Assembly (NCBI RefSeq): GCF_900964775.1
Contig: NC_041806.1
Span: 16,518,297 to 16,582,296, forward strand
Direction of reading: 5' to 3'
Source: Scleropages formosus
Taxonomy: Eukaryota
Length of the DNA stretch: 64,000 nucleotides
In this document: piece after piece, positions 677 to 28,600 of the stretch
Layout of the letters: each line of letters begins with the position of its first letter
Position numbering within the stretch: the first letter of the stretch is position 1
Notes under the pieces: model-generated
Databases searched by the model: none
What the model saw: only the letters and a program-made list of their open reading frames with translations
What the model was told of the DNA's origin: nothing
Program-made: the position numbers and the translations under genes

Positions 677-825
677 GTAAGTGGTGTCCACTGTGTCCAC
701 GAGGCCGATCAAAAGGCGACAAAACAAATGGTGCAGGAAGGCCGTGCTGTGATGAGTTGCATGTTAGTCCGTGTTTCACCTGAAAATCACATGATTACAC
801 ACATGCGCTGAGCAGGTCATCTCGT

Positions 826-848
826 AAACTTTTTTTTTTTTTTTTTTT
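826..848 (+). repeat. (T)23 homopolymer terminating the GC-rich 5' block
   Basis: gtaaacttttttttttttttttttttttggtctg. Confidence 0.9.
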
Positions 849-1164
849 GGTCTGTTCCTGAGTGACATTACATTTTCACTTGTATTTACATTTACCTCCT
901 GTTCTTCGGTAGATCCTGAAACCAGGAAGGAGAGGATCGCTGCTCCTACACTTCTAGACTTGTCCAGCACAGTTCTGATGCAAAATTTTATGTAGTTTTA
1001 TAACTTAATAAAATATACTGGCTATGCACTTGGTGTCTGTGGAAGTTTCTTGAAGGGTAAAAGTCCCATAATTTCCTTGTGTTCCTATAAATATGGTCTT
1101 TAAGAACTTAAAATGTTTTTCTAATATGTATTGATTTCAAATAAAACATTTCTGCATTATGTCG

Positions 1165-2300: not shown

Positions 2301-2648
2301 GAAAGAGAGACTTAAATGCAGACACGTGATTCTAAGCACAGTTATCACTTTCCACCATGTACATCACACGAGTAGCTGCCTCAAAGTTCATCCGTTATTC
2401 AACAGTTATCTGAAATGTTATAGCGCATAAACATTTCCACATTAGTGCTTAAGGGATGGGAGAAGTGAGTCCGGAAGAGGTGAATTACATTTCAGAAGAA
2501 GTACCCATTAACATATTTCTTTGCAGTACATATTAGAATTACAGAAATTTTTATATATAACAGCCAGTTAAACAAGTATTATTAAAAAATTTTCATAGAA
2601 GTTTGCGAAGGTAGGTCAAAATGTTCTGCATTGTTAGGAACGTTAATT

Positions 2649-2731
2649 GTCAGGATGGCCGAGCGGTCTAAGGCGCTGCGTTCAGGTCGCAGTCTCCCCT
2701 GGAGGCGTGGGTTCGAATCCCACTTCTGACA
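2649..2731 (+). tRNA. tRNA-Leu(CAG): tRNA-Leu (anticodon CAG), 83 nt with long variable arm
   Basis: The sequence gtcaggatggccgagcggtctaaggcgctgcgttcaggtcgcagtctcccctggaggcgtgggttcgaatcccacttctgaca is near-identical to the vertebrate tRNA-Leu-CAG consensus. It has an internal A box (tggccgagcgg) and B box (ggttcgaatcc), a T-run at 2738-2741, and one acceptor-stem change that gives a G-U pair. Confidence 0.9.
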
Positions 2732-3035
2732 AGTTGCATTTTATTTTCTATTTTAAACATTCTAGTACTTTCCGAAACTACAATAAACAGTTATTACCAT
2801 ATTGCTTTTATTCGGCGGCTGATTAGATATACGAGGCGTACGAGTAGGCAACTCCTCGGTCCAGTCGATTAGGAGACTCGTCAATCAGCGTTGCTCAGCC
2901 ATATATACGTTTCACATTAAACATAAAAGATATACATTTTTGCCTCAAAACTTAAACCCTGCTAACAGTCTTTTATTAGTTTTGCGCCATTTTGTTCGCC
3001 ACTGGATGTTAGAAAGCAGGCAACAGAGAGATAAA

Positions 3036-4990: not shown

Positions 4991-7900
4991 ATGTAAATGT
5001 ATACTGAGACAATTTTGAGACGCCCATTCCAATATCTGCTCAGGCCCACAGCTGAGACGGATCAAAAGATTATGAAAGTAGGGGTCAGTTGACGTAGTAG
5101 AGACTTGTACCTGCACAGCACCTAACAAACTAACCTGACCTAACTGTACTTGCCCTCAGAGACAGGATGTGGGAACCTGCTCCTGCGACACAGCCCTTTC
5201 ATGTGTTTTCATGTGACACCCCTGAAAGATGCTAGCTGTTAGCAATACACTACATATAGTAACTTAGTTATACACTAATGTGTTCAGCATCACCTTCAAC
5301 ACTGTCATGAGGACATTGGTGCAGCTTTTTACTCCAATTATGAAACTGTTGACACTTAGTTTGGATTATAAGAAGCCACACAAGAACATTTGGCCCTGTG
5401 TGTTAAAACTGAACAAGTGTTTTGTATCTTTGCACAGGAGAATTTCTATAGTGCATTTTGTATAGCGTGAAAATGACAAACGGGCACCTCAGGCCCAGAC
5501 TCATAGTGCTGGTTTCCCAAATCATAGGACCAAGTTCTTCTTAAGGAGAATCTCCATTCAGACAGAATTCCAGAACAAGACTTAAACTCTCCCTGTGAAA
5601 CCAGTCCATAATGTTTTTAGGGCAATTTGGAGACTTGGAACACCAAAAGATTTACAGCCAGTTTTTGGAACTGCACTACTTCTTTGAATTAAGCTTCAAG
5701 GTTGGGCTACACACATTGAATTTTGTTTAATTCTGCATACTCTGCATATAACCTCAATGTGCACTTCAGGACAGCACTACGATACCTGCACACATCACAA
5801 AAAAAAAAAAACAGAACACCTGTTCCACACATATGCATATTTATTGTAAAAAATACATATAAAACAACTTTTTTTAGACATACAAAAGATTTGGGCATAT
5901 AAACAGTATCAGAATTGAAACCAGGAGAACAATCAATTTGAATAATACATATTTACAATTTAATAAATAAATACTAAATTGTTAAATAGACTGAGAAGGC
6001 AGATTGTCCACATTTCTCAATGCAACAAATTCAAATGTCTAGGTAATGATCGTCACTGATCGTAATACATCTGCGCTTCAAAATTCATCATTACTATTAA
6101 AGCCAGAAGTTAATGTGGAGGCTGTGTGTATTTGGAGAATTATGTTTATGCTTTCAAGTCTTTTGGTTTTGGGTTTAAAAAAAAAAAAAAACACCTTGGG
6201 AATTGTACCCATGGAAGTAAACTTTAAATTATTGCACCACAAATGAGAAGGGGAAGTGGAAGGGAACGTTTAATCCAACATGATGTGGACTTTCTTTGAC
6301 CCACTGGTACAAAACAATCACCATCACCATCAACCACTAATCATGTTTAATATAATTTGTGCCAACAAAACTTACACTGTCACTGGAGTTTCCAGGGACT
6401 TCTCAAATCAAGACAGTGTATGGGAGACAAGGGCAACCTTGACAGAATCCCTACACTGTGGTGGGACCATTGCACCAAATGAGACGGGAAATTTGAAGGG
6501 GGGGGGGGGGGGGAATAAAAACCCTGCACGGAGACTACATGACCATCCCTAAACCTCACTCCAACATCTCTTGGCTACAAAACAAATGAGACATGTGGAA
6601 AAAGACAAAAGCTGTAAATAATTAAAAATAAAGAAGAAATTGTGAAAGCCGACCCCAAAGGATGTCAGCAGCAGCAGTTCTGCAGATTTCTGACCCATAA
6701 ACACACCTGCAGAAAATTAAAATGTCCACAACCAGACTGAGCCCAGCAGTTGTTTCATCCATAGAAAAACCAAAAGCATTTTAATAAACACAGCAAACAT
6801 TCTTACATGAATATCTATATGAGCTACAACCCCTTTTCTTTGAGTTACAGAACGACAGCTGCGGGTCTGCTCACACTGCTTTGTTGATCTAATCAGGGTT
6901 ATTATAATAATAAGCTCCTGGATTTGTGACCAATCTCCCAGGGAGGGCAGTAATTCTCATCGGCTGGTCACTGCTCCAGCTAGAGGCCAGACGGCAGCCA
7001 TATGGAGCAAAGTTTTGTCCCTGTGGTGCACAGGGATGTTAAAAGAACACCGGCTCTTTTAAAGCAAACAACTACGTCCAAAACATTTTCCCCTGCACCA
7101 GCTGGAGCTCCAGTAGTCAGGTCATTCAGGTAACACTGTTGGCTGTAAAGCATGGAGTGAACAGCTCCTGAGTTCAACAACCATCTACTGCAGCGTTGTT
7201 CATAACTGTCTCAAAGGTTCAGACACGGTTTTAAAGTGCTAAATGTGGCTGTGACACAGTAAGGGAGACAGTGCTTTGGGACAGGCCACTAGCTCTCCCA
7301 AATCACCATGGTACAGCACACATCAGAAAGGTAGACATATGGTTTTCCTTGGCACTGGCATGGCTAAATACTACAGCGATAATGGGTAATGTGTGTACTG
7401 GCAAGGTCTAAGCAGGAGGGAACCCCAGTGAAGACTGGCACACTACTGCTTCCCACCCTGACTTAGAGACACCGCAGTGGTGAAAAAGTAACCACAGGTG
7501 GCTGTGTCCTCAAAAAACATTTCTGGTTGTGGAAACATTACAAAAACATTGTAAAAATGTGACAACTCCAGAAGAGAGTTGCCCTTCAGATGTAACAGTT
7601 TGGCATCAACCCAACAGTTTGCTGGACAGTCCACAAAGAGAGAAAACTTGTGACAAACTAATAGAGGAACAAAAACAGCACTGAAGTCAAACACCTGGTC
7701 ACTCGCAGAAAAGCCTGCTTAGGATTCTTCCTTTCCATGACCTGGAGTCCCCTTGGCAACACCAGTGAAAACACATTGAAAACACACACCTTTCTTCGCA
7801 GAGCTCCCTGTAAAACCTATTGGTACCACGCTGGAACAGTTGAGGCTTTAATAGCAAAAGCCAAGCATCGTTTTTTTACTAACCTTAACAGTTTGGAAAA

Positions 7901-8368
7901 GTGATGAAATAAAGCGCATTCTCTTGGTTCCAGAGTGTGACAAAAGTTTACACTCGAGCGCCGAGCTGAGCTAAACACAAGTTAGCCGTGACACCAGCCA
8001 TCGCTCAGTCGCAGCAAACATAGGTCTTGAAGTTCTTCTGCATTTTCTTTTTTGCACAGTTGCAACAAATTCTGCCCTGAAGGGGGAGGAAAAGAAAAGA
8101 AGCAAATGTACATTTCAGAACTTGCAAATACAATTTGTAGTCAATCAGATCGATGAGAGACAAGGATGAGAACAAAGACACGACATGCAGACATACACAT
8201 ACACGTGTGGAGCAGACACAGGATCTCGCAGCGAAGATCAGAAGCTTTATGTCTTCACACACAAAACCAAAGCAAAGTTTGTCAGAGGAAGAGAAAGAGG
8301 AAGTGTACATATGCTCTAGCACTTGCATACATACTTTACCTGTAATGTTCAGACGCTTGACAAGAAGT

Positions 8369-8426
8369 TCAGTCAAAGGGGTGCTCTGGACAGCAGGCTT
8401 TCACTTTGCACCATGAGTCAATACAG
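8369..8426 (-). CDS. Putative terminal exon completing the RING-like finger, then a stop
   Basis: Acceptor ctctttccag|ctg. Translation (S)CIDSWCKVKACCPEHPFD*, comparable to Arkadia CVDQWL...KKCPICR; the last ligand is His instead of Cys. Confidence 0.35.
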
Positions 8427-8590
8427 CTGGAAAGAGTGAAGAGAGCTCATCATTACCTCCCACCATGAGCACTTCAATATCAAATATTATAACCACCCAT
8501 TCAGCTACAAAGACAACAGTAAAGAATGTTACTGCTATGCAGCACATCCCAACGCTGCCAACTGCTCAGGTCATTACCCATGATGCTTAC

Positions 8591-8696
8591 CTCTTGTGGT
8601 AGACACAGAGGCAGGCAAGACGGGCAATTGTCTCCCCCTGAATCAAATCCTCCAGGCAAATGGAACATTCCCCAGAGTCCTTGGCCAGAGTGTCAG
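8591..8696 (-). CDS. Putative exon encoding the first part of a RING-like finger
   Basis: Pyrimidine-rich acceptor ...tttttccctatcgcactaaag| and strong donor ag|gtaagc. Translation (T)DTLAKDSGECSICLEDLIQGETIARLACLCVYHK resembles Arkadia/RNF11-type RING-H2 (CxICL..L..GE..RRLPC.H.FH), but the H4 position is Cys. Confidence 0.5.
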
Positions 8697-8917
8697 CTTT
8701 AGTGCGATAGGGAAAAAGACAAGGTGGATCATGTCAGATAAGGCTTCTCAGCATTTAAAAACCACACAGATGCCTGTTTCTATCTACATAGATCATTAAT
8801 ATTTACATTCATTCTTCTAATAAAAATTAATTCTTTGATGCCCTGTTGTTAACTACTTGGCCCAAAGCCTATCCCTGAAGCTAACCACTGAATACATCCT
8901 CCATAGAGCAATCCCAC

Positions 8918-9132
8918 TCACACACACACACACACTTTCTGAACCGCTTATCCCATACGGGGTCGCGGGGAACCGGAGCCTAACCCGGCAACACAGGGCG
9001 TAAGGCCAGAGGGGGAGGGGACACACCCAGGACGGGACGCCAGTCCGTCGCAAGGCACCCCAAGCGGGACTCGAACCCCAGACCCACTGGAAAGCAGGAC
9101 CTGGTCCAACCCACTGCGCCACCGTGCCCCCT
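8918..9132 (-). mobile_element. SINE family A copy (in intron of the putative minus-strand gene)
   Basis: Same consensus with a (ca)n tail. Confidence 0.85.
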
Positions 9133-9134
9133 CA

Positions 9135-9300
9135 CCTGTACACACTAGGGACAATTTAGTCACCAATTCACATCTTTGGACTGTGGGAGGAAACCAGAGC
9201 ATGAAGAGAAGATGCAAGCCTCACACAGACTGAGGTGGATTCAAACCACAACACCCCCCATGACGGTGCTGCCCTTGCTTTACCAGTGGTACCATTTACT
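9135..9300 (-). repeat. V-SINE-like repeat fragment, reverse orientation
   Basis: acactagggacaatttagtcaccaattcacatctttggactgtgggaggaaaccagagcat... A similar copy lies at 51490-51700. Confidence 0.6.
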
Positions 9301-9392
9301 CTGATATCTTGCATTTTTTGTACTTGTCCTTTTTTTGCAAGAACAATTATACAATAATTTGGTGAAACAACTAAAGTGTCCAAGATACTCAC

Positions 9393-9488
9393 TGTTGTAG
9401 GGGAGTGGGGGGGACGTGAGGCAGCTCAGCAGGTGGTCTTCAATCCTACTGCCTGGAAAAGGCTTGGAGCAGAAAGGACAGCGGATTG
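9393..9488 (-). CDS. Putative exon encoding a UBZ4-type (RAD18-like C2HC) zinc finger
   Basis: Minus-strand acceptor ctctctctag|caatcc and donor aaca|gtgagt. Translation IRCPFCSKPFPGSRIEDHLLSCLTSPPLPYN has the spacing C-P-x-C-x11-H-x3-C seen in RAD18 CPVCGVNIPESHINKHLDSC. Phase 1 in and out, compatible with the neighbouring exons. Confidence 0.45.
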
Positions 9489-11189
9489 CTAGAGAGGAGA
9501 GAGGAGAGGCAGGAAGGTGTCATCACAGCATATGTGCTGCATCTGGGTAGAAACTGCAGCATTTCAAGCACACCCTGAAGGACAGTGGGGCAGGTGGACA
9601 AGGGAGCAAGACCCAGACAGACACAGTAAGAGGGTTAGTTTATACACAGCATGTGTCTTGGAGTGAGGCTGAGCAGGTAACAGGAATGTACTGAGCGCAT
9701 CCTTTCAAGACTCACAAAAATTCAAATCATTCGCCACCCAAAATTAAAAATATTGTCAGTCTCAGACTTGGGGGGATGGTGGGGGGGGGGGGGGGGGAAA
9801 CAACCCCAGACACAGACCTTCCAACTGTTGCCAATTAAACACAAACCATTAAGCCATGATTAAGAGGCTAATGGGATCATTTGCAGAAAGAAAAGAGGAA
9901 AAAAAAAAAAAAAAAATTCTCCCAGGCAGACTGAACTGTATTATGCCAGGCAACGTGACCGTGTCCCTCGGATGAATCTGTTTCCGTATCTGAGGAGTTT
10001 CTAAAATGAGCTCAGTGGAATCAAGGCAGTCCACTCATAAAAAACAAAAAAAAACAATAAAATAAACCAGACAACTGGCATTACTGCATTTTCACTGTTG
10101 ACAAGATCGCTTGTCTGCCCTCTTGACACACAAAACTGGACCGCTGCCAAGTAAACGCAAGAGACACTGACCCACTTTACCACGATGGCCTGTAGGCGCA
10201 GCTCGGCGGACAGAGGAAAGCCCTCTGGTGCACAGGCTCTGTTGGCAACGCAGGACAGACATGCACACACAGATACTCCTCCAAGCACCGCGTTCCCAAC
10301 ACACGCGGCACCGACCGCTCACACTTGCAAGGAGAACAAATACCTGTAACTCGGCTGCATAACAGAAAATGCGAGTCTCAACATGAGAATTTCTGAGCAG
10401 AGACCCCCCGGCCTTCTTCAGTGCCAAGTGCCGTTAAAAAGAAGTTTGCACAACTTTCACAACACATCCTCCTCTCAACCGCATTGCTTAAGTCATGTTC
10501 TTAGCCAACAAAAGGTGCGGCATTTGGACTACTGGTACCGATGGGTATTCTGCTCAACAAACGTGGACAGCGGTGGGGGAACCATGCTGTAACTTTTAAA
10601 GAGGTTTAGACACCACAAACAGGAGCTCATGGGGGAGAGACCACGGGGCCAGGTGTGAGACACGGCCATGAAGGCATGGTGCCTCTCCCAGGACCTTCAC
10701 TGCTCCCTTCTGGTTCAACCAGCACACCTCAGACTTCAGTCCCAACACCAAGTTATCTCACCTGCAGAGATATACCAAGAGTTGAATGTAATAGCGACTG
10801 GCAGAAGGATGATTTCACAGCCTTGGTTAAGTCTGGGGTGCGCTTGGACAGCAGGCTGGAGTGACCCAGCACCACATGAGGGCTCGCAGGTCACAGCTGG
10901 AGATGTGGACTTGGACAAAAGAGTCTGCTAAATGAACAGATGTGGATGTATGCAACAGCGTTGCTAGGGCAGCTCTACAGATGATGCCAACAGGCCGAAA
11001 AAACAAATCAGGAAGTCTGTTTCAGTCCCGTGAGTTAGGCTAGAGTCTCTGAAGGGACTTGTAGACATCCACTCTAAAACTGCTCTCCATCATAAACAGT
11101 CTCACCAGAGCTGAAGATAAGAGCTCAGTTGTGTTACCTGGGGTCCCTCTTGCCACTTGGGCTTCACAATGAGTCCTCTCACTGTTGGA

Positions 11190-11190
11190 G

Positions 11191-11222
<32 letters not shown>

Positions 11223-11260
11223 CTGCTTGACCCATACGGGGTAGCCGGAGCCTAACCCGT
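11190..11260 (-). mobile_element. Truncated SINE family A tail fragment with (CA)14
   Basis: acacac...agaactgcttgacccatacggggtagccggagcctaacccg. Confidence 0.7.
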
Positions 11261-12132
11261 CTATTGCTACGCATTTTCTTTATTTGCACACTTTCGCAGT
11301 CTCATGGACACCTGTCAAAACACGACAGTAACTGTCCAAAGTCATCTGCCACTGTATTGTTGGGTATATGCTGCTATAACCTTGTGACATTCCCCCTGGG
11401 ATCAATGAAGTTCTTACCTATCAATGTATTGATTATCAGTAAATGCATCACTCAAGGGTACTGTGGCAGTAGCATGGAGAAAGGCTGGAACTGGTGACCT
11501 CTGGGCTAAAAGTCCATGTTTGTCATGCTAATAGTTTTGTTAAATGCCTGCACATTGTCAATGAGCTTTGGAACCCATGTACTGCTGCTACTGTGGGACA
11601 GTTTTGGTCACTCGAACAAAACCAGTCATTATCACCAGGAGCAGAACTTGTGTGTGCTGAACACATAGTTCTGGAGGTAAAAAATTAATTAAAAGTAACC
11701 TCCGGTTAAAGTATTTAACATGACTGCTTATAATGCATTTTACACATCTGTGTATTATTACCATAACAGCATGTGTAAAAATTTATATAAACAAACTTCA
11801 ACTCAATACTGTCGAGTAACAAGTTTCTAATCTTACCCACAATGTAAACACCTGTCACGATAAAGGAATTTAAAAAAAATAATCTGTGTTTCTGTTTACT
11901 TTGCAAACAAACAAACAATCACAATGCATCTGGCTGGGGAAAATTTTAAAAAGCATGCAAGGTTTTATGTAGCTGCTCAGTTACTGCAAAATTGATAATC
12001 CTGTTGCAGCTTCTGCTTCTATGTGACATAGTATGTCATTGCTTAAGGCGGGCATGATTATTTTACTGTGTCTGTCTGTAAGTGAAGAGCTGATATCATG
12101 CGTCAATACGGGCGTTATGACAGGCTGAACAA

Positions 12133-12330
12133 ATGGTAGTGACAAATGGAGACACCCCACATCTCCGATTACACAGTAGTGATACAGCAGAGTACATAAT
12201 GATTATACACCACTATATTAACCCTGATTACAGTAGTGATACAGGGACAGTGATATACAGGGAGGGACAGTACGATTATGTACGTTATACACCTGATTAC
12301 AGCGTACCAGTGTACAATGAATGAATGATT
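12133..12330 (+). repeat. Degenerate minisatellite (~45-bp units, ...tgattacagtagtgatacag...) abutting the CpG island
   Basis: Repeated gattacagtagtgatacag.. units; the spurious ORF 12133-12324 reads through it. Confidence 0.6.
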
Positions 12331-12399
12331 ACAACACAGTACTCATACGGAGAGTAGTATACAGGTAGGAGAGTAAGGACAAAGCGGGAGACTGTGATT

Positions 12400-13300
12400 G
12401 TAGCCCCGCACCACCCTACAGAGCCGAGCCGAGCGCACATCGTCACCGCACGAACACGGCTTCTGCAGCACAAGCCCTCGCTTATTCTGCGACATGTTCG
12501 CACTCGCTGGCTGCGCACTCACTGACTCACCGTCCCTCGGCACAAAGAGGCGGCGGCGGCGGCGGGCGGACGGACGCGGACGAACTTACTGCCATGGCGA
12601 TTGTTGACTCGGTACAGGCCGATCCACGCATCGGAAACGGGCCGCGTGTTGGCGGCCCGGGCGCGGGCGGACCGTGCGGAGCCGTTCCGGCCGGAAGAAG
12701 AATGTCGATTCACGGGCAGGCGTTCCGAGAAAGTGCGCTGAGGGATGCGGCCTGTGTCCGCCGCGGACAGCACATCTCCGTGGCCGTCCGGCTCGGGGCC
12801 TTGCTCGTCTGTGTGTTTTCCGGGGGTGCTGCTCTCGTCCGACGGGTCCGCCTGGTCGCCACGGGGAGGGCTTCCGTCAGCCGCAATCCCGGCGGCGCTC
12901 GCATGCTGTCCCTGGTCGGAGTCGCTACCCTCTTCCGAGCGACTACGGCTCGCTTCCGAGTCTTGTTCGAAACTCCCCGAGAAACCCACCACCAGGCTAG
13001 TGGGCCTCTTGCTCCGCACGCGGCGGTACGTCTCCCGACTTATGCCGTCTTTCGCGAAAGCCGACGGCACGGCGTCTTCTTGTAGGCGACTCGACCTCGT
13101 CCCCATGACTGGACCCCTCGCGCTGCTTTTTTCCTCTTCCTTCCGCCCGTCGGTACGAGTGAGCGACGCCTCCACAAGGGTTGCGTGGTCCTCTGTCTCT
13201 CAAAAGCCGCCCTGCAGTCCTAGACTAACCGCTGGACATTTTCCGCTCTTCGACGCTCCCACACTCCTCGCCCAGGCGGTCCCTCTCGCTGAAAAAAGCG
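12400..13300. promoter_or_regulatory. CpG island / GC-rich promoter region, likely exon 1 of a minus-strand gene divergent from TEP1
   Basis: Sharp rise in GC and CpG density, with (GGC)n runs, flanked by AT-rich repeats. Long ORFs appear in several frames, as expected for a CpG island. Confidence 0.6.
12590..13175 (-). CDS. Putative first coding exon of an unknown minus-strand gene; encodes a Ser/Arg/Glu/Asp-rich, low-complexity N-terminus
   Basis: ORF from ATG 13175 (MEASLTRTDGRKEEEK...SRSRSEEGSDSDQGQ...NNRHG). A perfect GTAAGT donor sits at 12589 in phase 1, and that phase matches the next model exon. An alternative donor acg|gtgagt at 12531 is in phase 0. Confidence 0.4.
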
Positions 13301-14147
13301 AGAAGTGAGGACTGGTTTCTTCCTCTGTTGACTTGTGCTGTGACGTCACAAAGCCAGGAGAACTTTTCGTCCAACCACGTAGCAGGAAGTGGGCTTCATT
13401 TGATCTGTATTTAAATTCGTGTAACGTAGCAAATGAAATTTTCATGTCGCGGAAGCAGGCGAACCGGCCGGTTAGACACGTGATTTTACGATCAGTTTCG
13501 CAGTGCAAAAGTACATCCTTGTGTAGACGAAATGAACTCAGAAGCAAACAAACGCTGGAATCAGTCTTTGTTTTCAAACGTTGTAAATGGATGTGTTTTA
13601 TGCATTAAACAGAGAGTGTGTGCGATCGAAGCAAAGACCTGAGACGTCATAATTCACATTTGGCAGGTAAAGGTCTGTTCAAAGTGTGTGAATGTGAGTG
13701 TGTTTGATTGCCCTGTGATGGACTGCCGTCCTGCGCAGTCTACTCTGCGTCCCTGCTTTAGAGTGAGCGGCTATTTTATTTGTGCGTATTAGAAGAAATA
13801 TTTCGTTTACACGCAAAGATTGTTTACAAAATGTAAATCAAAACAACCTAAATGATAATATCATTTTTGAAATAAAGAATAACACACACGCAAAGTATTA
13901 AAACACATGGAATACAACAATTATCCAAAACTTCTCAAACACCGCAAGTACAACTAAAATTTATTAAACAAAAAAGAACTTATGTCCTCTTATTAAAAGG
14001 ACAGATGAAATTCAACACAATAAAAACCACGCTCTCATTTAATAGGCTTTTAAACTAGATTACAACAAACACTAAACCCATAATCGGATTTCAAACTATC
14101 GACTAGACTGTAGTCTAAAATCTGTTCGCATCCTTTACCCACACATT

Positions 14148-14352
14148 GACTGAAACCGCTTGTCACAAGGGGGATCGCGGCGAACCGGAGCCTAACCCGG
14201 CAACACAGGGCGTAGGGCTGGAGGGGGAGGGGACACACCCAGGACGGGACGCCAGTCCATCACAAGGCACTCCAAGCGGCACTTGAACTCCAGACCCGCC
14301 AGAGAGCAGGACCCGGACAAACTCGCTGCACTACCGCGCCACCGCACCCCCC
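14148..14352 (-). mobile_element. SINE family A copy
   Basis: Consensus match; no microsatellite tail. Confidence 0.85.
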
Positions 14353-15004: not shown

Positions 15005-17381
15005 GTAAGAATCAAGAATGCAGTTTGTGTGGTGTAATACACGATGTATTGTCGCGCGTCAGTTCAACTTACACACAGTAACATCACAATTTTATGATAA
15101 AAAAGCTCTGCAGTTAGCGTACGCTTATGTTAAGCATAGCGCGCATTATATAAGTAAAAATGTCTAAAGTGAGAGTGGCTTTCAGGTGTATTCTTGTAGA
15201 GTCCGACTCTGTCCGAGACAAAAGTGAACTTTGCTCTTCTTGTTCTTCCAGCAGGCTGAGCACACAGTTGATCTGCAGCCTTCAGACGGGTACGAAGTAA
15301 CACTCCACCCTCACTTATTAAATACTAGTAAATACCGTCGCCTAAAAATAACACAAAGTGTATTGCTTCTGTTCCAAACTGGCATTTGCTCACACAGTCA
15401 CACTTTGATGTTACTTTTTTGTCCCAGATGTCCTGTTCATTTATCATTTTTAGTCTTTTGAGTGTGGCGTTACTCGTATTTTATTTTAAATCACTTACAT
15501 AGAGGTTCTTGGCTTTTCAGCTACTGACCAGCTGATACCGATTCATGAAGTTTTAAGAACGATCACATAAGTAGAATAGATAGAGAACTTGGGGCAGGGA
15601 ACAGCCTGCAAGGGAGGCCAATCCAACACAGGGAAACTGGGGACTCTAAATTACGAGTAGTGTCCAACTCACCTGAAAAATGTCTTTGTGGGTGGCAACC
15701 AGAGCACCTAGAGGAAACAAAGGGCAAACGGAGAGAACATGCTGGACTCGCACTTATGTCCAGCTGCCCAGATCAGGAACTGAGGCGCCAGTGCAACCTG
15801 CTGTGTCACAATGCCACCCAATTATGTGTAAAATAACATTTTAAAAATCATTTAACTAGGTTGTCACAAAATACTTTTGCTATGTGATCTTTTAAAAAGC
15901 ACTTAATGTGTTTGAATTTGTCCTATCCAAACAAGTATTGTTTCCTTGTTTCTGATCCTTTTGATCCAGTGCATATGCAGTGTAAAATTAAGTTTAAGCC
16001 CATAATCATAACTGAATAATAAATTGCTCTTCTGCTTCAGTTGATTTGGATGATTTTCTCAGTGCTAAGGTTGATTGTACTTTTAAGGGACATGGAAAAA
16101 CTGCACATACACTGTGACTGTATACCACACCAGTTTTCTGAGCCCCTGCCCTGTATTATTACTGTTATGTTTAGCTAATTAAACTATAGTGTTTATGATG
16201 CTTCTGCTGGTATTTCTAGGAGGAAATGAATGAATGAAAGAAATGAATAACTGAAAGTATAATTGAATAATGTTTATCTAGTTATACATTGAAATGATTA
16301 ACCTTTGTTTAGCTGATGCCTTTGTAGAAAACAACTTATGATGCTGCATAAGCAGCTTCACAATAATGAAATGTTTCCATAAATGCTATTATAGGAGAGT
16401 GGATTCAAACCGAGGATGTTTAGATTTCAAAGCAATGTCTCAAACCATGTTCGTAGTTGCTCACCAGAAATGCACCCGTCCCTCAAATACTAGAGTTGAT
16501 TTGTTCCATGAAATCACCCTGTTAGGTGAATTGTTCTCATGTGGGGATCCTATAGCAACTGAATAAAATGATTAAAAATGTCATGTGTTGTATAGTTACG
16601 TTGAATTAATTTTAGGTGGCACATTTTCCATATGGAATGGATTGTTTTTCTTTTGTGTACTTTGAGCACATTAAAAATTTGATGCTCTGTAGATGTTTTA
16701 TTGTTAAATCCTTGATAAACAACTGAAACAATTGGAAGGGGGTCCAGTGTTCACAAGCTGCAGGGTGTGTAGGTTCACTTTGTTTAAAGCCATGTGGAGC
16801 TGCTCTGCAGGTTCTGTAGGCCCAACCAGTGAGCCTACAGGTGTTGGACAGACTCCAAAAAGATGTGGCAAATATTATGCCTTCCAGGACCTCTATATGC
16901 AACATATTAGCACTGTGAAAAATTATAACAATAAATCTTTAACATTTATTATTTTGATGATTTTCCTTAGGGTCCTCCTCCTTAGAGCAGCCATCTGAAT
17001 AATCTGCTCTTGTAAAGCATTCAAATTAATGTCCAAACTCAGTATTCTTGAGAACAAAATCAAAATATGCCTTTCTTTGCTACATTGTAAATCCAGAAGT
17101 TTTTGGTAAAAGTAGTGTATTCTTTAATGGGATATGGAATTTTAGCATAGATAAATGGTTAAATCCATCTATTATTATTAAATATGAGTTTGGTGTTTTG
17201 TGGTCAAATTTTGTATGTCTGCCTGTTTTTGAAGAAAAACAAGTTGATGAAGTTCCTTTTTCAATCTTTTAGTCTTTAGGATTTTGACAGTCTTAGAAGT
17301 TTATTTATTTTGTTAATAGTCTTTTTTGACAGAGGGGGAAAAACTGATGACTTATTTGCTGTTGTGTTTTTTTTAATCTTT

Positions 17382-17894
17382 CAGACTGAATTTCCCTCCC
17401 ACTACGTTAAGTTCTCTGGCACAGAGATGATGCCACTGACTCTGCTTAAAGCGAGCACAGACCTGAACAAGCAGGTCAAATCTGCGGGGCTCTTGACCAC
17501 CTACACTGAGTTAAACCTGGAGAACCGGATCCTCGCCGAGGCTTCAGCGTCTCTCTCCCACCCATGCCCCAGCCCCACGCTACAGCTCGACTGTGCAGCT
17601 CCGCTGTGGTTCTCCAAGTCACAGTCCCCAGGACTGAATCCTACTCAGCTCTCCTCTACTGTTGCCTCCCCCATCCTCTCCTCCCAGCTGTTCGGTAGTC
17701 AAGAGCTCCTCATCCCGAAGCACTGCCCTCTCCAGCCCTTGTCCTTTTCTGGTGTCATAACTTCTGGAGATCTCCTGTCTCCTTCTCTAGTGCAGTCTCC
17801 TGCTGAGGCAGAAGGAGAACAAGCAGTTGGAATTGGAGAGGAGGTGCTGAGTATGTCTGATGATGTACAGAGCAACAGGAAAGTGTGGAGTGAG
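17382..17894 (+). CDS. tep1: TEP1 exon 2, first coding exon (ATG at 17427)
   Basis: Acceptor tttcag|act. [19 protein letters not shown]...[12 protein letters not shown]...NRKVWSE. Donor gag|gtaagt. Contains one copy of the TEP1 N-terminal repeat motif. Confidence 0.8.
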
Positions 17895-20800
17895 GTAAGT
17901 CCTACATTGTCACTCTAGGTAAGCGTGTCTGTTAGCCACACCTGTGACGGTCAACCCACTTATTGGTGTATGTTGTAATCCTTGTTTGTATGTGTTTTAG
18001 AGTGTCAACATGTCTACCTTAAAATATGTATTGACTTGCATTTCACAAAGCTCTAAATCCAACTTTTGCATGTTAATGAGTCATGTGCTTTTCATACATC
18101 TTAACGTGTGTGATCTTATGTGCGCAAAAGGACTCCAGCGAGGTGTCTGTAGAGGAGTCTGCCCTGGAGCTGCCTCTGGTTGAAGAAAAGGAAGAGGAAA
18201 AGATCCCACTGGGGCATGAGGAGGAGTTTGGAGAGACAGAGGAGAGCAGTGTTCAAGAGGAGGAGCTGAAAGACAAGAAGGTGAGATAATACTGTGTTCT
18301 TACACTTTGTGGATAAACAAGTCAAGTGGATGAATCTTGGAAGGTGCTGTGCTATTCTGCTTTGCCTACAATACTTTATCACTATGTAGCTCTCAGTGTA
18401 GAAAGGTAAATATTTGTTTACCAGTGACAGACAGTTTGAGCTCAAACCCTGGGCCTAACCCCTCTCTCTCTCTGTGTCCAGTACCTCTTGCTCAACACAG
18501 TCTGCTGTTCCCTGGTGACTAAGAACACTTCTCCAGGACAGCAGGGCTGGGATGAGGAGCACAGTTTGTGGATGAGGATGAAGAGCCTGGCCCATGATGT
18601 AGCTCTGTGTGACCCAGAGTTCTTATTAAAGGTGAGTTCTTCACAGTGTACTCTTACCACAGGAATGGACAGAAACCTTCATTCAAGTCCTGCTCTTTAT
18701 TGGTTCCACTTTAACATTTCCTTCTACCAACAAACTCATGTGAGAGCCACTCTTTGACCGATAGGTGGCAGTGTACACCAGACAGGAACTGAACATCCGC
18801 ATCACTGCCAACTTCCTCCTGGCACTGGCGGCCAGTCTCCCTCACACCAAGCCACACCTGCGAAGGTATTTCTGTGCAGCTGTGCAGCTTCCCTCTGATT
18901 GGCTGGAAGTCGTCAGGCTTTATAGTACGGTGGGTTTCTGTTGCTGTCGGAATCACTGATGAATGACTATAATTCCAGCGCTGATCGTGTTCTTACTTAT
19001 TTACTATTACGATTTCATTGTGGCTTTAATTTTTAAAAAAAATAAATAACATATTTTTGTAATAAACCACATGAACATTGCTTTAAGCCAATGTAATCTG
19101 TAACCTATTCTTCATGTCCAAGACAGTGTAAAACAGATGCTTTAGTTTGACTTATTTTCTCTGACCCCTCCTTCAGTGTTTCTCCCAGTCTTTGCCATCC
19201 TGTCTGAAAAATGCTCTGGTGGACAAGTTTAAACAGTTCACTGAGTACCAGCTCGCCAAGTACAACACACGGAAGCAGCGGTGCAAACACAACCGCAACA
19301 GAGCCAAAACCAAGGTACCATGGTAACAAAAATAGTACTGCAGACACAGTAGCCACAGGGCCAGAGCCAGTGTTCCGCAGTAAGTTAAGCAGTTTGTAAA
19401 CCTCTCATGTCCCCCGTAACATAGAAAGCATCAGTACATACCAAGTGACAGTAACACGAGGTGCAGAAAGAGTCATGTGCTGTGGACACCATACTGGTCA
19501 GGCAGGAATCCACAGTCTAAAGTGATGCCCAAGTACAGCAGAGAATGCATCTCTGCTTCTTCGCTTTATCTTCACTAGATTCATTTGAATAACCATGCTC
19601 TTTTCTGTCTCCTCTCTCTGTTCCTGCACCACTTTTCTTAATTCTTTCTCATTGCCTTTCAGAGCCCGTCACCGGAGCAGTGGGAAGAGTGGGCCACCAA
19701 GCTTCGATCTAACCCAGCCGTACTGAAGAAATACGTGAGTGTTTTTGTTCCCTTGTGCAGTTGTCTCTTTGCTTGTATGATTACCAGGGAGTTACATTTA
19801 CATTTATTCACTTAGCAGACGCTTTTGTCCAAAGCGACTTACAACAGATACTATGTAATGTTACTAGCCCACACCTTATTCACCAAGGTGACTACATTGC
19901 TAGATACACTACTTACAAGGGGTTACTCATCCATGCATTAGTGAAACACACTCGCTCTGTCACACTCATACACACAGTTGTGTGAAGGACTATGCAGGAA
20001 TGCTTTGTGTCTCCCTCTTATGGTTATGTGTGAGGCTCTTGTGTTGCACATGTGTGTCTGTGTCTGCATTTGCACAGCTGAAGATGCAGGAGCGTTCTGC
20101 GGTGAATAAGAAGGCTGAGAAGTTCAACCTGAAGAAGATGATTCACAGGCTGCACATCCGAGAGCCAGCAGAGCACGTGATGGCCTTGATGGGGAAGAGG
20201 TAACAAACTGCTCTCTGGTAACTGACACACACATAGTTTACAGGTGATAAAAATACCTAGATGTGCCACCCCAAAGGGAACCCCTTAGTGGAACCTCTTT
20301 GCCCTGGACAGGTACCCCAGAGACCACCGGGAATTCTCACGCAGTGGCCTCCGGGGCGAATGGGACAGGGAAAGGGCAGGGCAGCGGATGAAGCTGGCAC
20401 AACCCAACACCTGGGAGCGCAAGCTGAGCCAGGAGGGGAACAAGGCGCGCACCTGGGAAAAGCTCATCGGTCATTCAGTTTATCGAAGACACATGGCACT
20501 GCATTTACCAGTTACACTGACTGTTTCATGCCTTCTGTTGTGCCACACTGATTCCCTTGTCCTTTGTTCTGTAAACTGTACTCTATCCTGTGTTATGCAG
20601 ACAGTAATGCTCTGCCCTTCATGGCTATGCTGAGGAATCTCAGGAACATGATCACCAGAGGCATCAGTGAGAAACACCATGAGAAGATCTTGGCTAGACT
20701 GACCAATAAGGTAAGCAGGAAAAAATCATATTGTTTTTTGGTCACTGTGTGTAGTCAGTGTGTGATTACTGGCATTGTTTATTCCAAACACTTCTAGCTC

Positions 20801-23531
20801 CTTTGAGTTGATCACAGTGTATTAATAATAATGATGGACTGTAATGAAAGGGTAAGTGATAGTCAGTAAAACTGCTGAAATATCTTGATCTATAACATAT
20901 CATAATGTAACAGTGAGGGAGGGGGAACTTTCCATCATCCCTCAGCAGCAAGGATTATTGTGCTCATGTTTTGTTGCTGACCATTGTTGTTTTGTTTCGT
21001 TGAGTTCTACCCCTTACTTGTTCTGCCTGGCTTCCTGTTTTGCTGTCTTTATGCATAAGCGCTTGTAATTTCTAATAAAGAGTGAGTTGTTCCTGCAGAT
21101 GGTAAATTGCTTCAATATGATTTGGTGGGTTGAGATGTGAATTACTGACATACCTCTTTGGTGTAAAGTGCTTCAGTTCTTCTTGAAAACAGAACAGAGG
21201 CTATTTCAAGGGATCGTTTTTCTGGAAGTGTGATGTACACGCACAATGATGCTGCATTTGTACATTTCATATGGAATACACTAGTAAATACTGTGTGTAA
21301 TGTCTGTTTCTTTGCCCTTACTTAAACATCTTTACGCTGCATATGATTTACCATCAAATTAAAAACTCATGAAGAAGCACTTTGATCCCTCGTTGTAAAC
21401 CCATGTGTGACACACGTGCATACATTTACAAAACACGCAGACAAATTTACGCCACTTGGTTCTTGTGTTCCAGGAGACAGTTATTCAAAGCAGACAGTTC
21501 CCCTTCCGTTTCCTTGCTGCCTACAAGGTGATCATGGAGCTATATGGTTCAGGTGAGCTTCATCTGTTGGCCACAGTATCTTTCTTCTCTGCCTGCAAGT
21601 TTAAAGTTGAATGACTTGAGTTCATACCTTCCACACACCTTCCTGAACAACTGCACCTTCTTCCTACCTGTGCCTTAGTGAAGCTTCCCTCAAACTCCAC
21701 GGTGCTGCAGAATATCCTGAGGAAAATCCCAAAGGTCAGGAAGTACCAGCAGCTGGACTGGCATACAGCAGGACGCAAGAGACTGAGCATAGCACTGGGC
21801 GTGCCCTTTGTGTACCGCATGTATAAGATGAAGAAGAATCAACTGCACAGGGCGAGGTATGGGTAAAGAAATGGGCAGCGCTTATGCCTGAGACATCTCT
21901 GCAGTGGGGACTGTGAATTTTTTATTTTTTTTTCTTTCTAAATTTATTTGCTCTTATCTGTGCATTTCTTTTGGCTTTCCTATTCTGCGCCCCTCCGCAG
22001 TACAAATGATCACTGGTGTTCTCCTCTTCCTCTCCCAGCCAGAAGCTCTATACTGAGGAGCTGTTGAGCCGGTATCAACGGGCCCTGGAGACAGCGGTCC
22101 AGATCTCATGTGACTACAATGTGCCTCCCCTCCCAGGCCACACTGTGCTGTTCTGCGTCACATATTTCAATAGGACAAGTAACAGGTTTACTGCACAGCA
22201 GGACTTCTGTCTTCCCCTGGATGCTGACAAGGAGGCTTCAACATGTGATTCTCTCACCCCCAGTGTAAGTCTTATTCCGTCCTCTCTTCCTATGTTTTAC
22301 CCCCTCAGACTTGTATGTCTTTCCCAGGTGAATCCATTGCTGCTGTCAAATAGGTCTCCACCACCTCACATAGTCCCTATTAACCCTTCATGCCCTCTGC
22401 AAGGTTCTCCATGTGTTCTCCTCTCATCAGTAATGTCAGTGTGCTGTTTGTCTAACACTACTCATCAGGTACCTTTTTAAAAGAAGGTGCTGTAGAACTG
22501 TAGGCGATTTCTGTTTCTACATCTAGCGTACAGTGACAAGATGCTGACAGATGCCGTTCGGCAGTCATTTATTGACTCTAACATGTCGCATTACTGCAAT
22601 TAACTTTGGACCTTTAATGGGCACCTGTTGGCTGCCCGACTGCTTTTGGATGTTACAGGGTGCCCCTTTATGGTGTCTTGATGTTATTTCTTTTAGCCCC
22701 AGGAGATGACAGTGTTGTTAGCGCTCATGATGGCTCAGCGCTGTGAACACGTTCAGCTGTTTCTCTCCAACTATAGCGGTGTTGAAGAGGTACAGCTGAA
22801 GCCTGGTGCTCTACTGCAGAATGTGAGGCATGTGTTAAGAAGATTGGAGGTGAGCCTGTGGTGAACTGCTTGCCTGTTATTGTTCAGAAAAAAAAAAACA
22901 GCTTCTTCACCCTGTGTTTTCAGTCGAACTCTGTGGGACGTCTGAGGGACGCTTTGACATCTCGGACTCCTAACTTTGTTGTTTCTCTCTCCCAGGAAAG
23001 TGAAAAGGATGACATCGTCTTCGAAGACTATTCCAAGTTGTTCTTCAACTTGAGATCACAGAACATCAAGGTACTCTGCAAGATGGGTAGCCATCTCAGG
23101 TGTTTGTGCTGCTTCGCTACCCTGTGGCAGAAGTCTGCAAACAGATAAATGATGCCAGCTGTCCCTCCATTTTCAGCAACTTGTCCTCGCTGTAATCTTC
23201 AGAAACAGTGTTATTGGTGAAATACATAAACTATCCTACCATCTTGCTCCAAACTGCTGTTGCCCTTACTTAGCTCAGATGTGGTAAAACGCATTGACTC
23301 CATATTTTGTATGCAACCTGTCTGTGAAACACTTTACTTTCAGAACAGTACATCACTTTGGATGTCACTGCACATGTGCACAGTCCTACCTATGCAGTTT
23401 CGAATCCCACTTGGTCTGTGTGGAGTTTGCATGTTCTCGTGTTCACGTGGGTTTCCCCCATGTGCTCTGGTTTCTACCTTCAGTCTAGAGATGCCATGCA
23501 GGTTAACTGGTGAATGTAGTGTCTAAATGTG

Positions 23532-25690: not shown

Positions 25691-28600
25691 CCCTCTTTTT
25701 TGTGAGGATCACGTGTCAGTATCAGTTCCATTACAGATTTATTTGGCAAGTTGGGGTATAATGGATTATTTTGTATAATAAAATTTCGTACCTGTAAATA
25801 TTTAAAAAAGTTTGACCGAGGTATATTGTATTTGCTTTGTAGCTGTTCAGATGATGGAAATACTTTGTCAATAAACATGTCTGAAAAGCTATAAATTCCT
25901 TTTCCAACCCAATCATCAAATATAGTATTTTTAAATGAGGGAGCAAATAAATGATTTTTAGTAATAGGGCTTTGGAGAGAACCAGCTTGCCAACCGAAAA
26001 ACCCACGAATCTGAGATCAAATCCTGAGTGTGTGCAAAACCACTGGATTATCCAATGGATCAAGACGCGTAGTAGGTAAAGGCGAAAACAGTAGAGCTGA
26101 AAGTGAAGAAGGATAACAGCATGCTCCTTCTAAGTTTACCCATAACTGGGGTTGTTTTTGTAGCCAGTAGGCCATCATTCTTATATTACTCGCCCAGTAA
26201 TAAAACTGAAAATTTGGCAATCCCATTCCCCCTTTTGATTTGGGCCTCTGCAATAAAGCCTTCCTTATTCTAGGAATCTTTCTATTCCAAATAAATTCTG
26301 AAATGATTTTATCTAGGTTGTTAAAAAAAAAAAAAAATTCTTTAAATATATTGGTATACATTGAAATAGAAATAAAAACTTATGGAGGGTGGTCATTTTT
26401 ATTGTATTAATTCTTCCTAACAACGAGATGGGAGTATGAGACCATTTTCACAAATCCTGTATTGTTTGATCCAGTAATTTCGAAAAATTTTCTTTGTATA
26501 AATCTGCAAAGACTTTAGTGACATTGATCCTTAAGTATTTAAACTGAGTTGAAGTTTTAAAGGGCAAGTTTTCAAAAGAATTTTGGTCATCCAAGTTGTT
26601 AACTGGAAATAGTACACTTTTTCCCATATTAAGTATGTACCCTGATATTTGTCCAAATGTTTTTAAAGCAGAGACTATCCCAGGAATAGACTTGGATGGG
26701 TCAGAAATATATAATAATAAGTTGTCCGCGTATAAAGATACCTTGTGCTCCCCTCCACCTCGAGAGACCCCACTATAAACAGTGGAGCTTCGCAGACAGA
26801 TTGCCAGAGGCTCAATTGCTAATGCGAAAAGCATCGGAGATAATGGGCAACCTTGTCTAGTAGAGTGAGTTAACACAAAGTAATCTGACCTGACATTATT
26901 TGTCTGTACTGACGACATAGGTGATACATACAGAAGCTTTATCCATGAAATAAATGTTGGGCCAAAGCCAAACCTTGACAGGGCCTAGAAGAGATAATCC
27001 CACTCGACCCTGTCAAAGGCCTTTTCTACGTCCAAAGAAATAAGTATCTCAGAATGACATCTTGAATGAGAGGAGTATATTATATCAAATAATCTACGGG
27101 TATTATGAGCCATTTGTCGATTTTTAATGAAGCCTGTCTGATCTTCATGAATTATTGTTGGGAGCACTTTTTCTAACCTAATTGCCATTATTTTAGCTAA
27201 TATTTTGTTGTCTATGTTTAGCAGACTTACCGTTCTGTGTGAGGCTGGATCAAGTGGGTCCTTTCCTTGTTTATGTAATAAAGAAATTGACGCTTGGTAA
27301 AATGTAGCTGGAAGAAGACCCTTCTCTAAAGATTCATTAAACACATCTAGAAGGAGAGAGGCAATATCTGCAAGAAACATCTTGTGAAATTCAGGTGTAT
27401 ACCCATCTGGACCAGGTGCCTTTGAGGATTGTAAACTACCTATAGAAAATTTAACCTCGTCCAGAGTAAAAGGTTCCTCCAATAACTTCCTATTTCCTTC
27501 ACAAATGGAAGGGATATCTAAATTTAAGAAGTCGTCCAAGAGTTTGCCATCTTTTGTTGACTCAGTTGAATACAGTTTAACATAAAATTGCCTAAATACT
27601 TGATTAATTTCTAATTGGTCTTTTGTTATACAACCAGAATCAGTGCGGATTTCCCTTATTAATTTTGATGTCTCAAATTCTTATCTGATGGGCCAAATAT
27701 TTTCCTATTCTGTCCCCATATTCATAATATTTATGTCTGGAGCGATTTATTAATTTAACAGTCTTGGCCGATGATAAAAGATTAAATTCCGTTTGCAATG
27801 TTATCCTTTTTGTCAGAAGTTCAGTAGTAGGGAACATTGCATACTAGTGATCGATTTCTGAAATTCATTCCATTAATTTTTGTCTTTCCTCTTTCTGTAT
27901 CTTAGTCCGATAAGCAAGAAGAGAAATAATTTGACCACGTAAGTAGGCTTTCAGAGCTTCCCACAACGTGAGATAATGTATTTTTAAGATGTGTGAGGAA
28001 GTATTCTGTGTGCTAATTTCTTGATATGAGAGTGTGAAAAAGAGGTGTTTGGTGCACAGTTCTGTGCCTTTCAGCAGATCTTCATTTTCCATATTTCAGA
28101 TTCTCTTCTTCTGACAAGAAGACGGACAGGAACTGCGTGGAGCTGTTTGGATTCAGTGAACAGATCCTCAAGTAAGGATGCACTGGACTCTCAGATCCAT
28201 TTACTTCCTTTTACAAGAGGTGTCAAGGGGTAATGGCACGCTAGAGCCCTGTAAGTAAAAGGCTGCATCCCATCCTTTGAACGTGCTCTGTAATAATTTG
28301 AACAGTGCTACTAGCTTGAGCACAGGTGGCATTTTCCTCTCTTCCTGTCTTTTCTCACATTGTCAGTGGTGAGTAAAGACAGGAAGTGGCTTCACATTTC
28401 AGCAAAATGACATGAATTGATAGATCGTGTCCACTGATTTAGCTAAATGTTGATTAACAGTCCTTTTCTTCTGGGTCTTGTACAGTTGTTTCCTCTTGTT
28501 TTCCTTCAGGTTTGTGGCAGAAAGAGGCTCTGCCAGACTTCTGGACCATGTGGAGCAGATGGACAAGATTCATAACATCCCACCCTCAGCAGGCAGCACA

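Follow-up and report, generated by a model that had tools for sequence, protein, structure and literature searches.

An intact ZNRF-family RING E3 ubiquitin ligase gene of Scleropages formosus, probably from a third paralogue clade

We analyzed a stretch of 64,000 nucleotides (nt) from the genome of the Asian arowana Scleropages formosus (assembly GCF_900964775.1, contig NC_041806.1, positions 16,518,297 to 16,582,296 of the forward strand), referred to below as the window, in which four exons on the minus strand encode a protein with a UBZ4-like zinc finger directly ahead of a C-terminal RING. We found that this gene is intact and protein-coding and belongs to the RING E3 ubiquitin ligases of the ZNRF (zinc and RING finger 1/2) family. 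This explanation, taken as a whole and including the placement in a third paralogue clade and a mechanism drawn from homologous proteins, is in our view very probably correct. An earlier note on the same DNA, made from the letters alone, had called the gene unannotatable and had proposed a homology search with the spliced model. In a search of 5.8 billion proteins, the spliced product matched, with 100% identity and 100% coverage, a protein of 258 amino acids annotated at NCBI as “E3 ubiquitin-protein ligase ZNRF2 [Scleropages formosus]”. In Pfam it matched the family zf-RING_2, the score lying just over the cutoff of that family. The gene is therefore already annotated, with exactly the four-exon model described here.

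Reading the minus strand of window positions 8200-13400 and joining the four exons yielded a single open reading frame (ORF) of 777 nt in total, with cumulative phases of 1, 1 and 2 across the junctions and a TGA stop codon at 8371-8369. All introns are of the GT-AG type with the donors GTAAGT, GTGAGT and GTAAGC, and at every acceptor a polypyrimidine tract precedes the AG. With these consensus splice signals and the complete match to the annotated protein, the exons, junctions and phases proposed in the earlier note were borne out. Its product of about 300 amino acids was too long, because the first in-frame ATG, which is set in a favorable Kozak sequence with G at both -3 and +4, lies at 13106 and gives 258 amino acids; position 13175, from which the longer product had been counted, is merely the opening of the frame downstream of an in-frame stop. 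The elements of the gene, with coding sequence abbreviated as CDS and untranslated region as UTR, are the following.

13107..13417, minus strand: putative 5'UTR and proximal promoter region, conserved with Arapaima; contains an in-frame stop upstream of the ATG
12590..13106, minus strand: CDS exon 1, 517 nt, codons 1-172 plus 1 nt, with the GTAAGT donor at 12589; disordered, S/R-rich N-terminal half
9393..9488, minus strand: CDS exon 2, 96 nt, phase 1 to 1, with AG acceptor and GTGAGT donor; C2HC UBZ-like zinc finger
8591..8696, minus strand: CDS exon 3, 106 nt, phase 1 to 2; first two thirds of the RING (C215, C218, C233, C235, H238) and the Ube2N-contact residues E214, L219 and E220
8369..8426, minus strand: CDS exon 4, 58 nt including TGA; end of the RING (C241, W245, C252, P253, H255) and the clade-specific K-V-K-x-C-C motif
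5814..8368, minus strand: probable 3'UTR of about 2.55 kb, conserved with Arapaima from the stop codon to about 30 nt past an AATAAA at 5845

The orthologue of Arapaima gigas, which is 90% identical, has the same structure, its CDS being rebuilt from four exons of 514, 96, 106 and 58 nt; this agreement, together with the complete match to the annotated protein, far exceeds what chance would produce. Conservation between the two species extends beyond the coding exons. Window positions 13417-12576 align to positions 9663-10528 of the Arapaima locus at 78% identity, and on the other side of the gene positions 8698-6185 align at 68% and positions 6191-5814, the last ~380 bp, at 87% identity. Judged from this alignment, the block 5814-8368 is probably a long, constrained 3'UTR. 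A CpG island at about 12400-13200 (GC content 0.64-0.69, observed/expected CpG ratio 1.1-1.3) spans exon 1 and overlaps only the 3' part (13107-13200) of the 5'UTR and promoter region.

The introns of the gene carry repeats. Intron 1, read on the minus strand, contains simple repeats in the form of a (GT)n microsatellite, a ~20-nt poly-T and a ~20-nt poly-C run (~11190-11220, 9900-9920, 9780-9800), and intron 2 holds one copy (8940-9140) of an interspersed repeat of about 200 bp that resembles a short interspersed nuclear element. At least 20 copies of this repeat, with 73-94% identity, occur in the window; they are densest at 47-62 kb and include those at 30860-31050, 57401-57581, 1184-1375 and 14154-14348. 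Several orthologues in the databases (P0053, P0058, P0244 and P0246, from carp, Synaphobranchus, Silurus and Neogobius) end in wrong C-termini produced by intron read-through after exon 2 or exon 3 and lack the last RING exon; automated annotation apparently often misses the short final exons, which here measure 106 and 58 nt.

The assignment to the ZNRF family rests on the C-terminal third of the protein. In a phmmer search of the PDB, residues 171-258 aligned without gaps to the whole crystallized C-terminal domain of human ZNRF1 (5ywr_B positions 2-89, E = 1.8e-33). An AlphaFold2 model built on a 93-sequence family alignment, which spans Trichoplax, insects, molluscs, nematodes, fishes, birds and mammals, was confident in the same residues, with a mean predicted local distance difference test score (pLDDT) of ~77-96 per 10-residue block, while residues 1-170 had a mean pLDDT of ~50 or below, consistent with disorder. 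The top match of this model in a Foldseek search of the PDB was again 5ywr_B (E = 7e-11, 61% identity over 84 columns), followed by RING-H2 domains of the Arkadia family superposing at 1.1-1.3 A, so that the Arkadia-type alignment put forward in the earlier note holds.

The RING itself reads C215-x2-C218-x14-C233-x-C235-x2-H238-x2-C241-x10-C252-x2-H255. It thus departs from the canonical RING-H2 pattern (C3H2C3) in having Cys235 at ligand 4 and His255 at ligand 8; ligand 5 is His238, as in that pattern. The Cys at the fourth and the His at the last position had been seen correctly in the earlier note and taken there as substituted ligands, a sign of a variant or decaying finger. All 12 zinc ligands, those of the C2HC finger and of the C4HC2H RING, are invariant in the 93-member family alignment, and C4HC2H is therefore the normal pattern of the family and neither a peculiar variant nor a sign of decay. 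The structure of ZNRF1 with Ube2N at 1.47 A shows that this pattern is compatible with a zinc-bound RING (PMC5941314), and one orthologue bears the source name “mRING-CH-C4HC2H_ZNRF domain-containing protein”.

Comparison with known systems underlines this family identity. The arowana protein and human ZNRF1 (5YWR, with Ube2N) share a collinear, gap-free module of 88 residues composed of C2HC finger and C4HC2H RING, with the same 12 zinc ligands, the Ube2N-contact residues and the strings YHKSCIDSW and CPEHP, and both proteins have an MG start of the myristoylation type and a disordered N-terminal half. They differ in that the N-terminal halves are unrelated, the arowana protein falls into a separate clade of the tree described below, and the chromosomal neighborhood is another one. 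With ZNRF2 the protein shares the order of a myristoylation motif, a disordered N-terminus (phospho-regulated in ZNRF2), a UBZ domain and a RING. However, its module is only ~59-61% identical to that of ZNRF2, lacks the ZNRF2 signatures HLVMCLTKPRITYNED and YHKGCIDEW and lies outside the ZNRF2 clade, and the ZNRF2 phosphorylation sites Ser19, Ser82 and Ser145 have no evident counterparts. RING-H2 domains of the Arkadia/RNF165/RNF38 type resemble the arowana RING in fold (superposition over ~52 residues) and in the zf-RING_2 match, but have C3H2C3 instead of C4HC2H ligands, and only the arowana RING has a UBZ-like finger packed ahead of it. Drosophila detour (CG14435), the single invertebrate homologue of ZNRF1/2, is a membrane-associated RING E3 with a myristoylation motif (PMC10869362). 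As judged from the insect sequences compared, it has the same zinc finger-RING module, although invertebrate modules are nearer to vertebrate ZNRF1/2 (~82% identity to ZNRF1) than those of the fish clade are (~61%).

In order to place the gene within the family, we gathered ZNRF1 and ZNRF2 modules by another search that started from the 5YWR sequence and calculated a neighbor-joining tree from 82 module columns and 37 taxa with 200 bootstraps. The arowana gene grouped with all its actinopterygian orthologues and a fragment from the coelacanth Latimeria (P0229) at 98% bootstrap support, while ZNRF1 and ZNRF2 formed clades of their own at 99% and 82%. The modules of ZNRF1, ZNRF2, lamprey and insects share 58-61% identity with that of the arowana gene, whereas mammalian ZNRF1 reaches 82% in comparison with ZNRF2 and likewise with a thrips homologue; the clade of the arowana gene is therefore a long-branch, faster-evolving one. 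Its members are marked by diagnostic changes around the RING (P232A, F246S/C, N249K, R250P/A, S251C and a C-terminal F257). Proteins of this type occur side by side with ZNRF1/2-type proteins in Arapaima, Oryzias, Coilia, Danionella, Cyprinus and Oncorhynchus, which indicates paralogy. The N-terminal half showed no similarity to the N-terminal fragments of ZNRF1/2 with which it was compared, and an exhaustive phmmer search with it against 1.84 billion cluster representatives returned only teleost proteins and one spurious insect repeat protein. The genomic position is distinct as well, since in arowana and Arapaima alike the gene is flanked on one side by a TEP1-like gene and on the other by the snoRNA SNORD126 with a tRNA-Leu(CAG). 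In the human genome, TEP1 and CCNB1IP1 are located at 14q11.2, ZNRF1 at 16q23 and ZNRF2 at 7p14.

Clade, N-terminus, synteny and co-occurrence thus all place the gene outside the ZNRF1 and ZNRF2 orthogroups proper, and these sequence comparisons indicate that it is neither ZNRF1 nor ZNRF2 but a member of a third paralogue clade of ray-finned fishes, probably including the coelacanth. The most durable alternative is plain orthology of the gene to ZNRF2, as its NCBI name has it, or to ZNRF1, as many of its orthologues are called, with no separate paralogue involved. Most orthologues do carry the names “ZNRF2”, “ZNRF1”, “znrf1” or “znrf2”, and the string YHKSCIDSW is held in common with ZNRF1. 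These names are inconsistent, ranging from ZNRF1 and ZNRF2 over zgc:66427 (in one catfish, Hemibagrus, P0079) to uncharacterized. Against plain orthology stand the separate clade, the identity of only ~60% to both proteins compared with 82% between the two, the presence of both types in the same species, the dissimilar N-terminal half and the neighbors TEP1 and SNORD126, and we consider this alternative improbable.

How old the third clade is and what became of it can be stated with less certainty. A search seeded with the coelacanth fragment, which was limited by its word index, found no clade member in tetrapods or sharks and returned only ZNRF1-type proteins of ~60% identity; a loss of the clade in tetrapods is what we infer from this distribution. 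The suggestion of the earlier note that the gene is a lineage-specific E3 can be retained in part, for the paralogue clade, seen only in ray-finned fishes and as the coelacanth fragment. We see a somewhat better than even chance that we are dealing with an ancient third ZNRF paralogue (“ZNRF-X”), which ray-finned fishes and the coelacanth retained and tetrapods lost, and which has its own N-terminal module for regulation and substrates, a remodeled RING face and a non-redundant, as yet unstudied function, possibly with another E2 preference. We found no dedicated literature on a third ZNRF paralogue, including under the name zgc:66427.

The finger ahead of the RING, CPFCSKPFPGSRIEDHLLSC, has the pattern C176-x2-C179-x11-H191-x3-C195 and hence the CCHC spacing of UBZ4 domains. 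The earlier note had identified it as a RAD18-type UBZ4 and had stated that no vertebrate protein with such a finger immediately upstream of a C-terminal RING was known to its author. This arrangement is what defines ZNRF1 and ZNRF2, and it is captured in the crystal structure 5YWR: the publications on both proteins describe a UBZ-like finger followed by a C-terminal RING, so that the combination found here is the published ZNRF architecture. In the ZNRF2 literature the finger is named “UBZ domain”, and a C160A/C163A mutant with a “defective UBZ” loses binding to mTOR (PMC4889327). The finger of ZNRF1 is dispensable for binding of Ube2N and required for stability of the RING (PMC5941314).

The likeness to RAD18 and WRNIP1 is nevertheless worth detailing. 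In sequence searches of the PDB with the finger alone, ZNRF1 was matched at 2e-7, and the best hits after it included marginal matches to the UBZ of RAD18 (2mre, 0.023; 5vf0, 0.046) and of WRNIP1 (3vhs, 0.07), while no UBZ or RAD18-type family of Pfam was found in the spliced product at E <= 1. A predicted model of the 31-residue finger showed a beta-beta-alpha fold (pLDDT 80), and its structural neighbors were the WRNIP1 UBZ at rank 1 and ZNRF1 at rank 2, together with Sgf11, the RAD18 UBZ and the FAAP20 UBZ. The superpositions had a root-mean-square deviation (rmsd) of 0.6-1.7 A but E-values of 0.5-1.8, the domain being only 31 residues long. With the UBZ4 domains of RAD18 and WRNIP1 (2MRE, 5VF0, 3VHS, 3VHT) the arowana finger thus has in common the ligand spacing, the beta-beta-alpha fold, a Pro-hydrophobic pair between the two Cys and the string H-L-x-x-C-L, with an rmsd of 0.6-1.4 A over 22-25 residues, a similarity below significance. 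It differs from them in its direct fusion to a RING and in one of the two contacts by which the WRNIP1/RAD18 group binds ubiquitin, namely Pro21-Val22 of the beta-loop on the Ile44 patch and Asp37 of the helix on Arg42 (PMC4370504). The pair in the beta-loop is kept as P177-F178 (Pro-Phe in 54 of the 55 clade members, Pro-Val or Pro-Ile in ZNRF1/2), but the position of the helix Asp is Leu193 and is hydrophobic (L, V, I, M or A) and never Asp in all 93 family members. The RAD18-type resemblance is therefore real in spacing and nearest non-ZNRF neighbors, yet marginal in its E-values and incomplete at the helix Asp, and it is not new. The roles reported for ZNRF fingers are RING stability in ZNRF1 and partner binding in ZNRF2, and no ubiquitin reading has been reported for them.

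These data bear on the idea, raised in the earlier note, of a ligase of the DNA damage response, which would recognize ubiquitylated chromatin or PCNA by a RAD18-type UBZ4 and attach more ubiquitin by its RING. The ligand spacing, the Pro-hydrophobic pair and the position of the RAD18 and WRNIP1 UBZ as the nearest neighbors outside the ZNRF family, in sequence as in fold, would agree with such a reader. We regard it as very improbable, since the statistics are marginal (E = 0.02-0.07 in sequence, 0.5-1.2 in fold), the residue equivalent to the Arg42-binding D37 of WRNIP1 is replaced throughout the family, Pfam detected no nuclear or DNA-binding module, and the family is myristoylated and acts on membranes, with the Na+/K+ATPase, V-ATPase/mTORC1 and the HOPS complex as its known points of action.

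Whether the gene is still under selection was assessed by comparing it with Arapaima (Nei-Gojobori). For the whole CDS, synonymous divergence (dS) was 0.546 and non-synonymous divergence (dN) 0.049, giving a dN/dS of 0.089. The values were 0.511, 0.070 and 0.137 for the N-terminal half and 0.627, 0.010 and 0.016 for the zinc finger-RING module. Full-length orthologues with 55-90% identity are found in eels, clupeids, cyprinids, catfishes, salmonids, percomorphs, bowfin and gar, and that of Polypterus is 44% identical over the whole alignment. The ZNRF gene is under strong purifying selection and is not a pseudogene. The earlier note had considered a decaying or recently inactivated pseudogene, its RING stripped of proper zinc ligands, and the Cys at position 4 and the His at position 8 are indeed departures from the canonical RING-H2. 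An intact ORF with consensus splice sites and three introns at conserved positions, the low dN/dS, and a ligand pattern that is invariant in 93 members, among them human ZNRF1 with its zinc-bound crystal structure, leave this notion with almost no probability. It is just as far-fetched that the four exons belong to different transcripts and that the spliced model is an artifact, given that the product equals the annotated protein exactly, that four exons of the same phases and matching lengths reproduce the Arapaima protein and that more than 80 fish proteins are collinear with it over their full length.

We found additional conserved features in the N-terminal half that bear on how this ZNRF protein may act. 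Its 172 residues are rich in Ser (15.7%) and Arg (12.2%), as the earlier note had observed. Among 14 orthologues the motifs R34-P35-x-S37 and R155-P156-x-S158 are invariant, a TFSERLP block and the string AWIGLYRV are near-invariant, and an acidic Ser cluster is conserved. The protein starts with MGTRSSR, which at the sequence level fits the N-myristoylation motif G-{EDRKHPFYW}-x2-[STAGCN]-{P}, and 84 of 89 orthologues begin with MG and carry Ser or some other small residue at position 6. ZNRF1 and ZNRF2 are tethered to vesicle membranes by N-myristoylation, which ZNRF2 requires for binding to the Na+/K+ATPase, mTOR and the V-ATPase (PMC10869362, PMC4889327). As for the E2, the RING of ZNRF1 binds Ube2N with a Kd of ~50 nM via E183, L188 and E189 (PMC5941314), and UBE2N/UBC13 co-purifies with ZNRF2 (PMC4889327). 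The equivalents of the three residues in the arowana protein, E214, L219 and E220, are conserved in 55, 55 and 54 of the 55 clade members, respectively, and I217, W245 and P253 are likewise conserved in the clade.

By analogy with these relatives, the protein may be N-myristoylated at Gly2 and thereby tethered to intracellular membranes. The RING would recruit an E2, for which Ube2N/Ubc13 together with a UEV partner is the likeliest candidate; recruitment of Ube2N is expected because the residues that give ZNRF1 its nanomolar affinity for this E2 are conserved. The enzyme would then build Lys63-linked chains, or chains of other types with E2s of the UbcH5 type, on membrane-associated substrates. 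In this scheme, the UBZ-like finger might stabilize the RING and aid in the binding of partners, and the disordered, S/R-rich N-terminal half with its R-P-x-S motifs could confer substrate specificity and would probably be subject to phospho-regulation, after the example of the phosphorylation/14-3-3 switch of ZNRF2. Akt sites (RxRxxS) and 14-3-3 sites (RSxpSxP) were considered as candidates in the N-terminus and rejected, as the R-P-x-S motifs do not fit them and are at most possible sites of basophilic kinases.

Several points speak against parts of this explanation. Myristoylation, choice of E2, type of chain and substrates are all transferred from mammalian ZNRF1 and ZNRF2. The RING surface is remodeled (P232A, F246S/C, N249K, R250P/A, S251C), and affinity for or preference among E2s may differ from those of ZNRF1. 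The analogy to the phospho-switch is weak, with R-P-x-S motifs that lie outside the canonical Akt and 14-3-3 mode-1 patterns. Finally, the tree was calculated by neighbor joining from only 82 columns, and owing to the long branch its placement of the clade with respect to the invertebrate ZNRFs is unreliable.

The neighborhood of the ZNRF gene in the window comprises the following features.

~17138-22487 and onward, plus strand: TEP1-like gene (telomerase-associated protein 1), divergent from the ZNRF gene, with exons collinear with the TEP1-like gene of Arapaima
22016-22477, plus strand: TROVE-domain exon of the TEP1-like gene (domain match)
2648-2732, plus strand: tRNA-Leu(CAG), found by ARAGORN and Rfam, 98.8% identical to the collinear Arapaima position
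741-818, plus strand: C/D-box snoRNA SNORD126 (Rfam, 58.5 bits against a gathering score of 55)

The TEP1-like gene of Arapaima is annotated with TROVE, NACHT and WD40 domains. SNORD126 falls within a conserved stretch (window 733-866) that has 80.6% identity to Arapaima. Since human SNORD126 is hosted by an intron of CCNB1IP1 (PMC8148486), a CCNB1IP1-like host gene probably starts at the edge of the window. In the Arapaima annotation, the CDS of the TEP1-like gene begins 96 nt from the ATG of the ZNRF gene on the opposite strand (Arapaima locus 9904-10001, corresponding to window ~13107-13417). Such a spacing points to an extremely compact bidirectional promoter or else to a first TEP1 exon wrongly placed by ab initio prediction; the annotated start looks like a CDS-only ab initio call. 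Two ORFs on the minus strand match reverse transcriptase (Pfam RVT_1), one of 708 amino acids at 61847-63970 (E = 3e-38) and a fragment of 184 amino acids at 26988-27539 (E = 5e-14). They are retroelement insertions, probably within introns of TEP1 or beyond.

Overall, the main value of these results is a correction: what had been presented as an unannotatable, possibly novel UBZ4-RING protein is an ordinary, annotated E3 of the ZNRF family, and its seemingly aberrant zinc ligands are the hallmark of that family. The annotation of the gene, the ZNRF architecture and the naming of the finger as a UBZ were known before, while the distinct, inconsistently named third paralogue, so far apparently restricted to fishes, appears to be mildly new. 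If this paralogue is genuine, the names under which it is found in the databases (ZNRF1, ZNRF2, uncharacterized) conceal it. In zebrafish and other fish models of ZNRF1/2 biology, including axon degeneration, the Na+/K+ATPase, V-ATPase/mTORC1 and autophagy, such a third member may compensate for the other two or confound the results.

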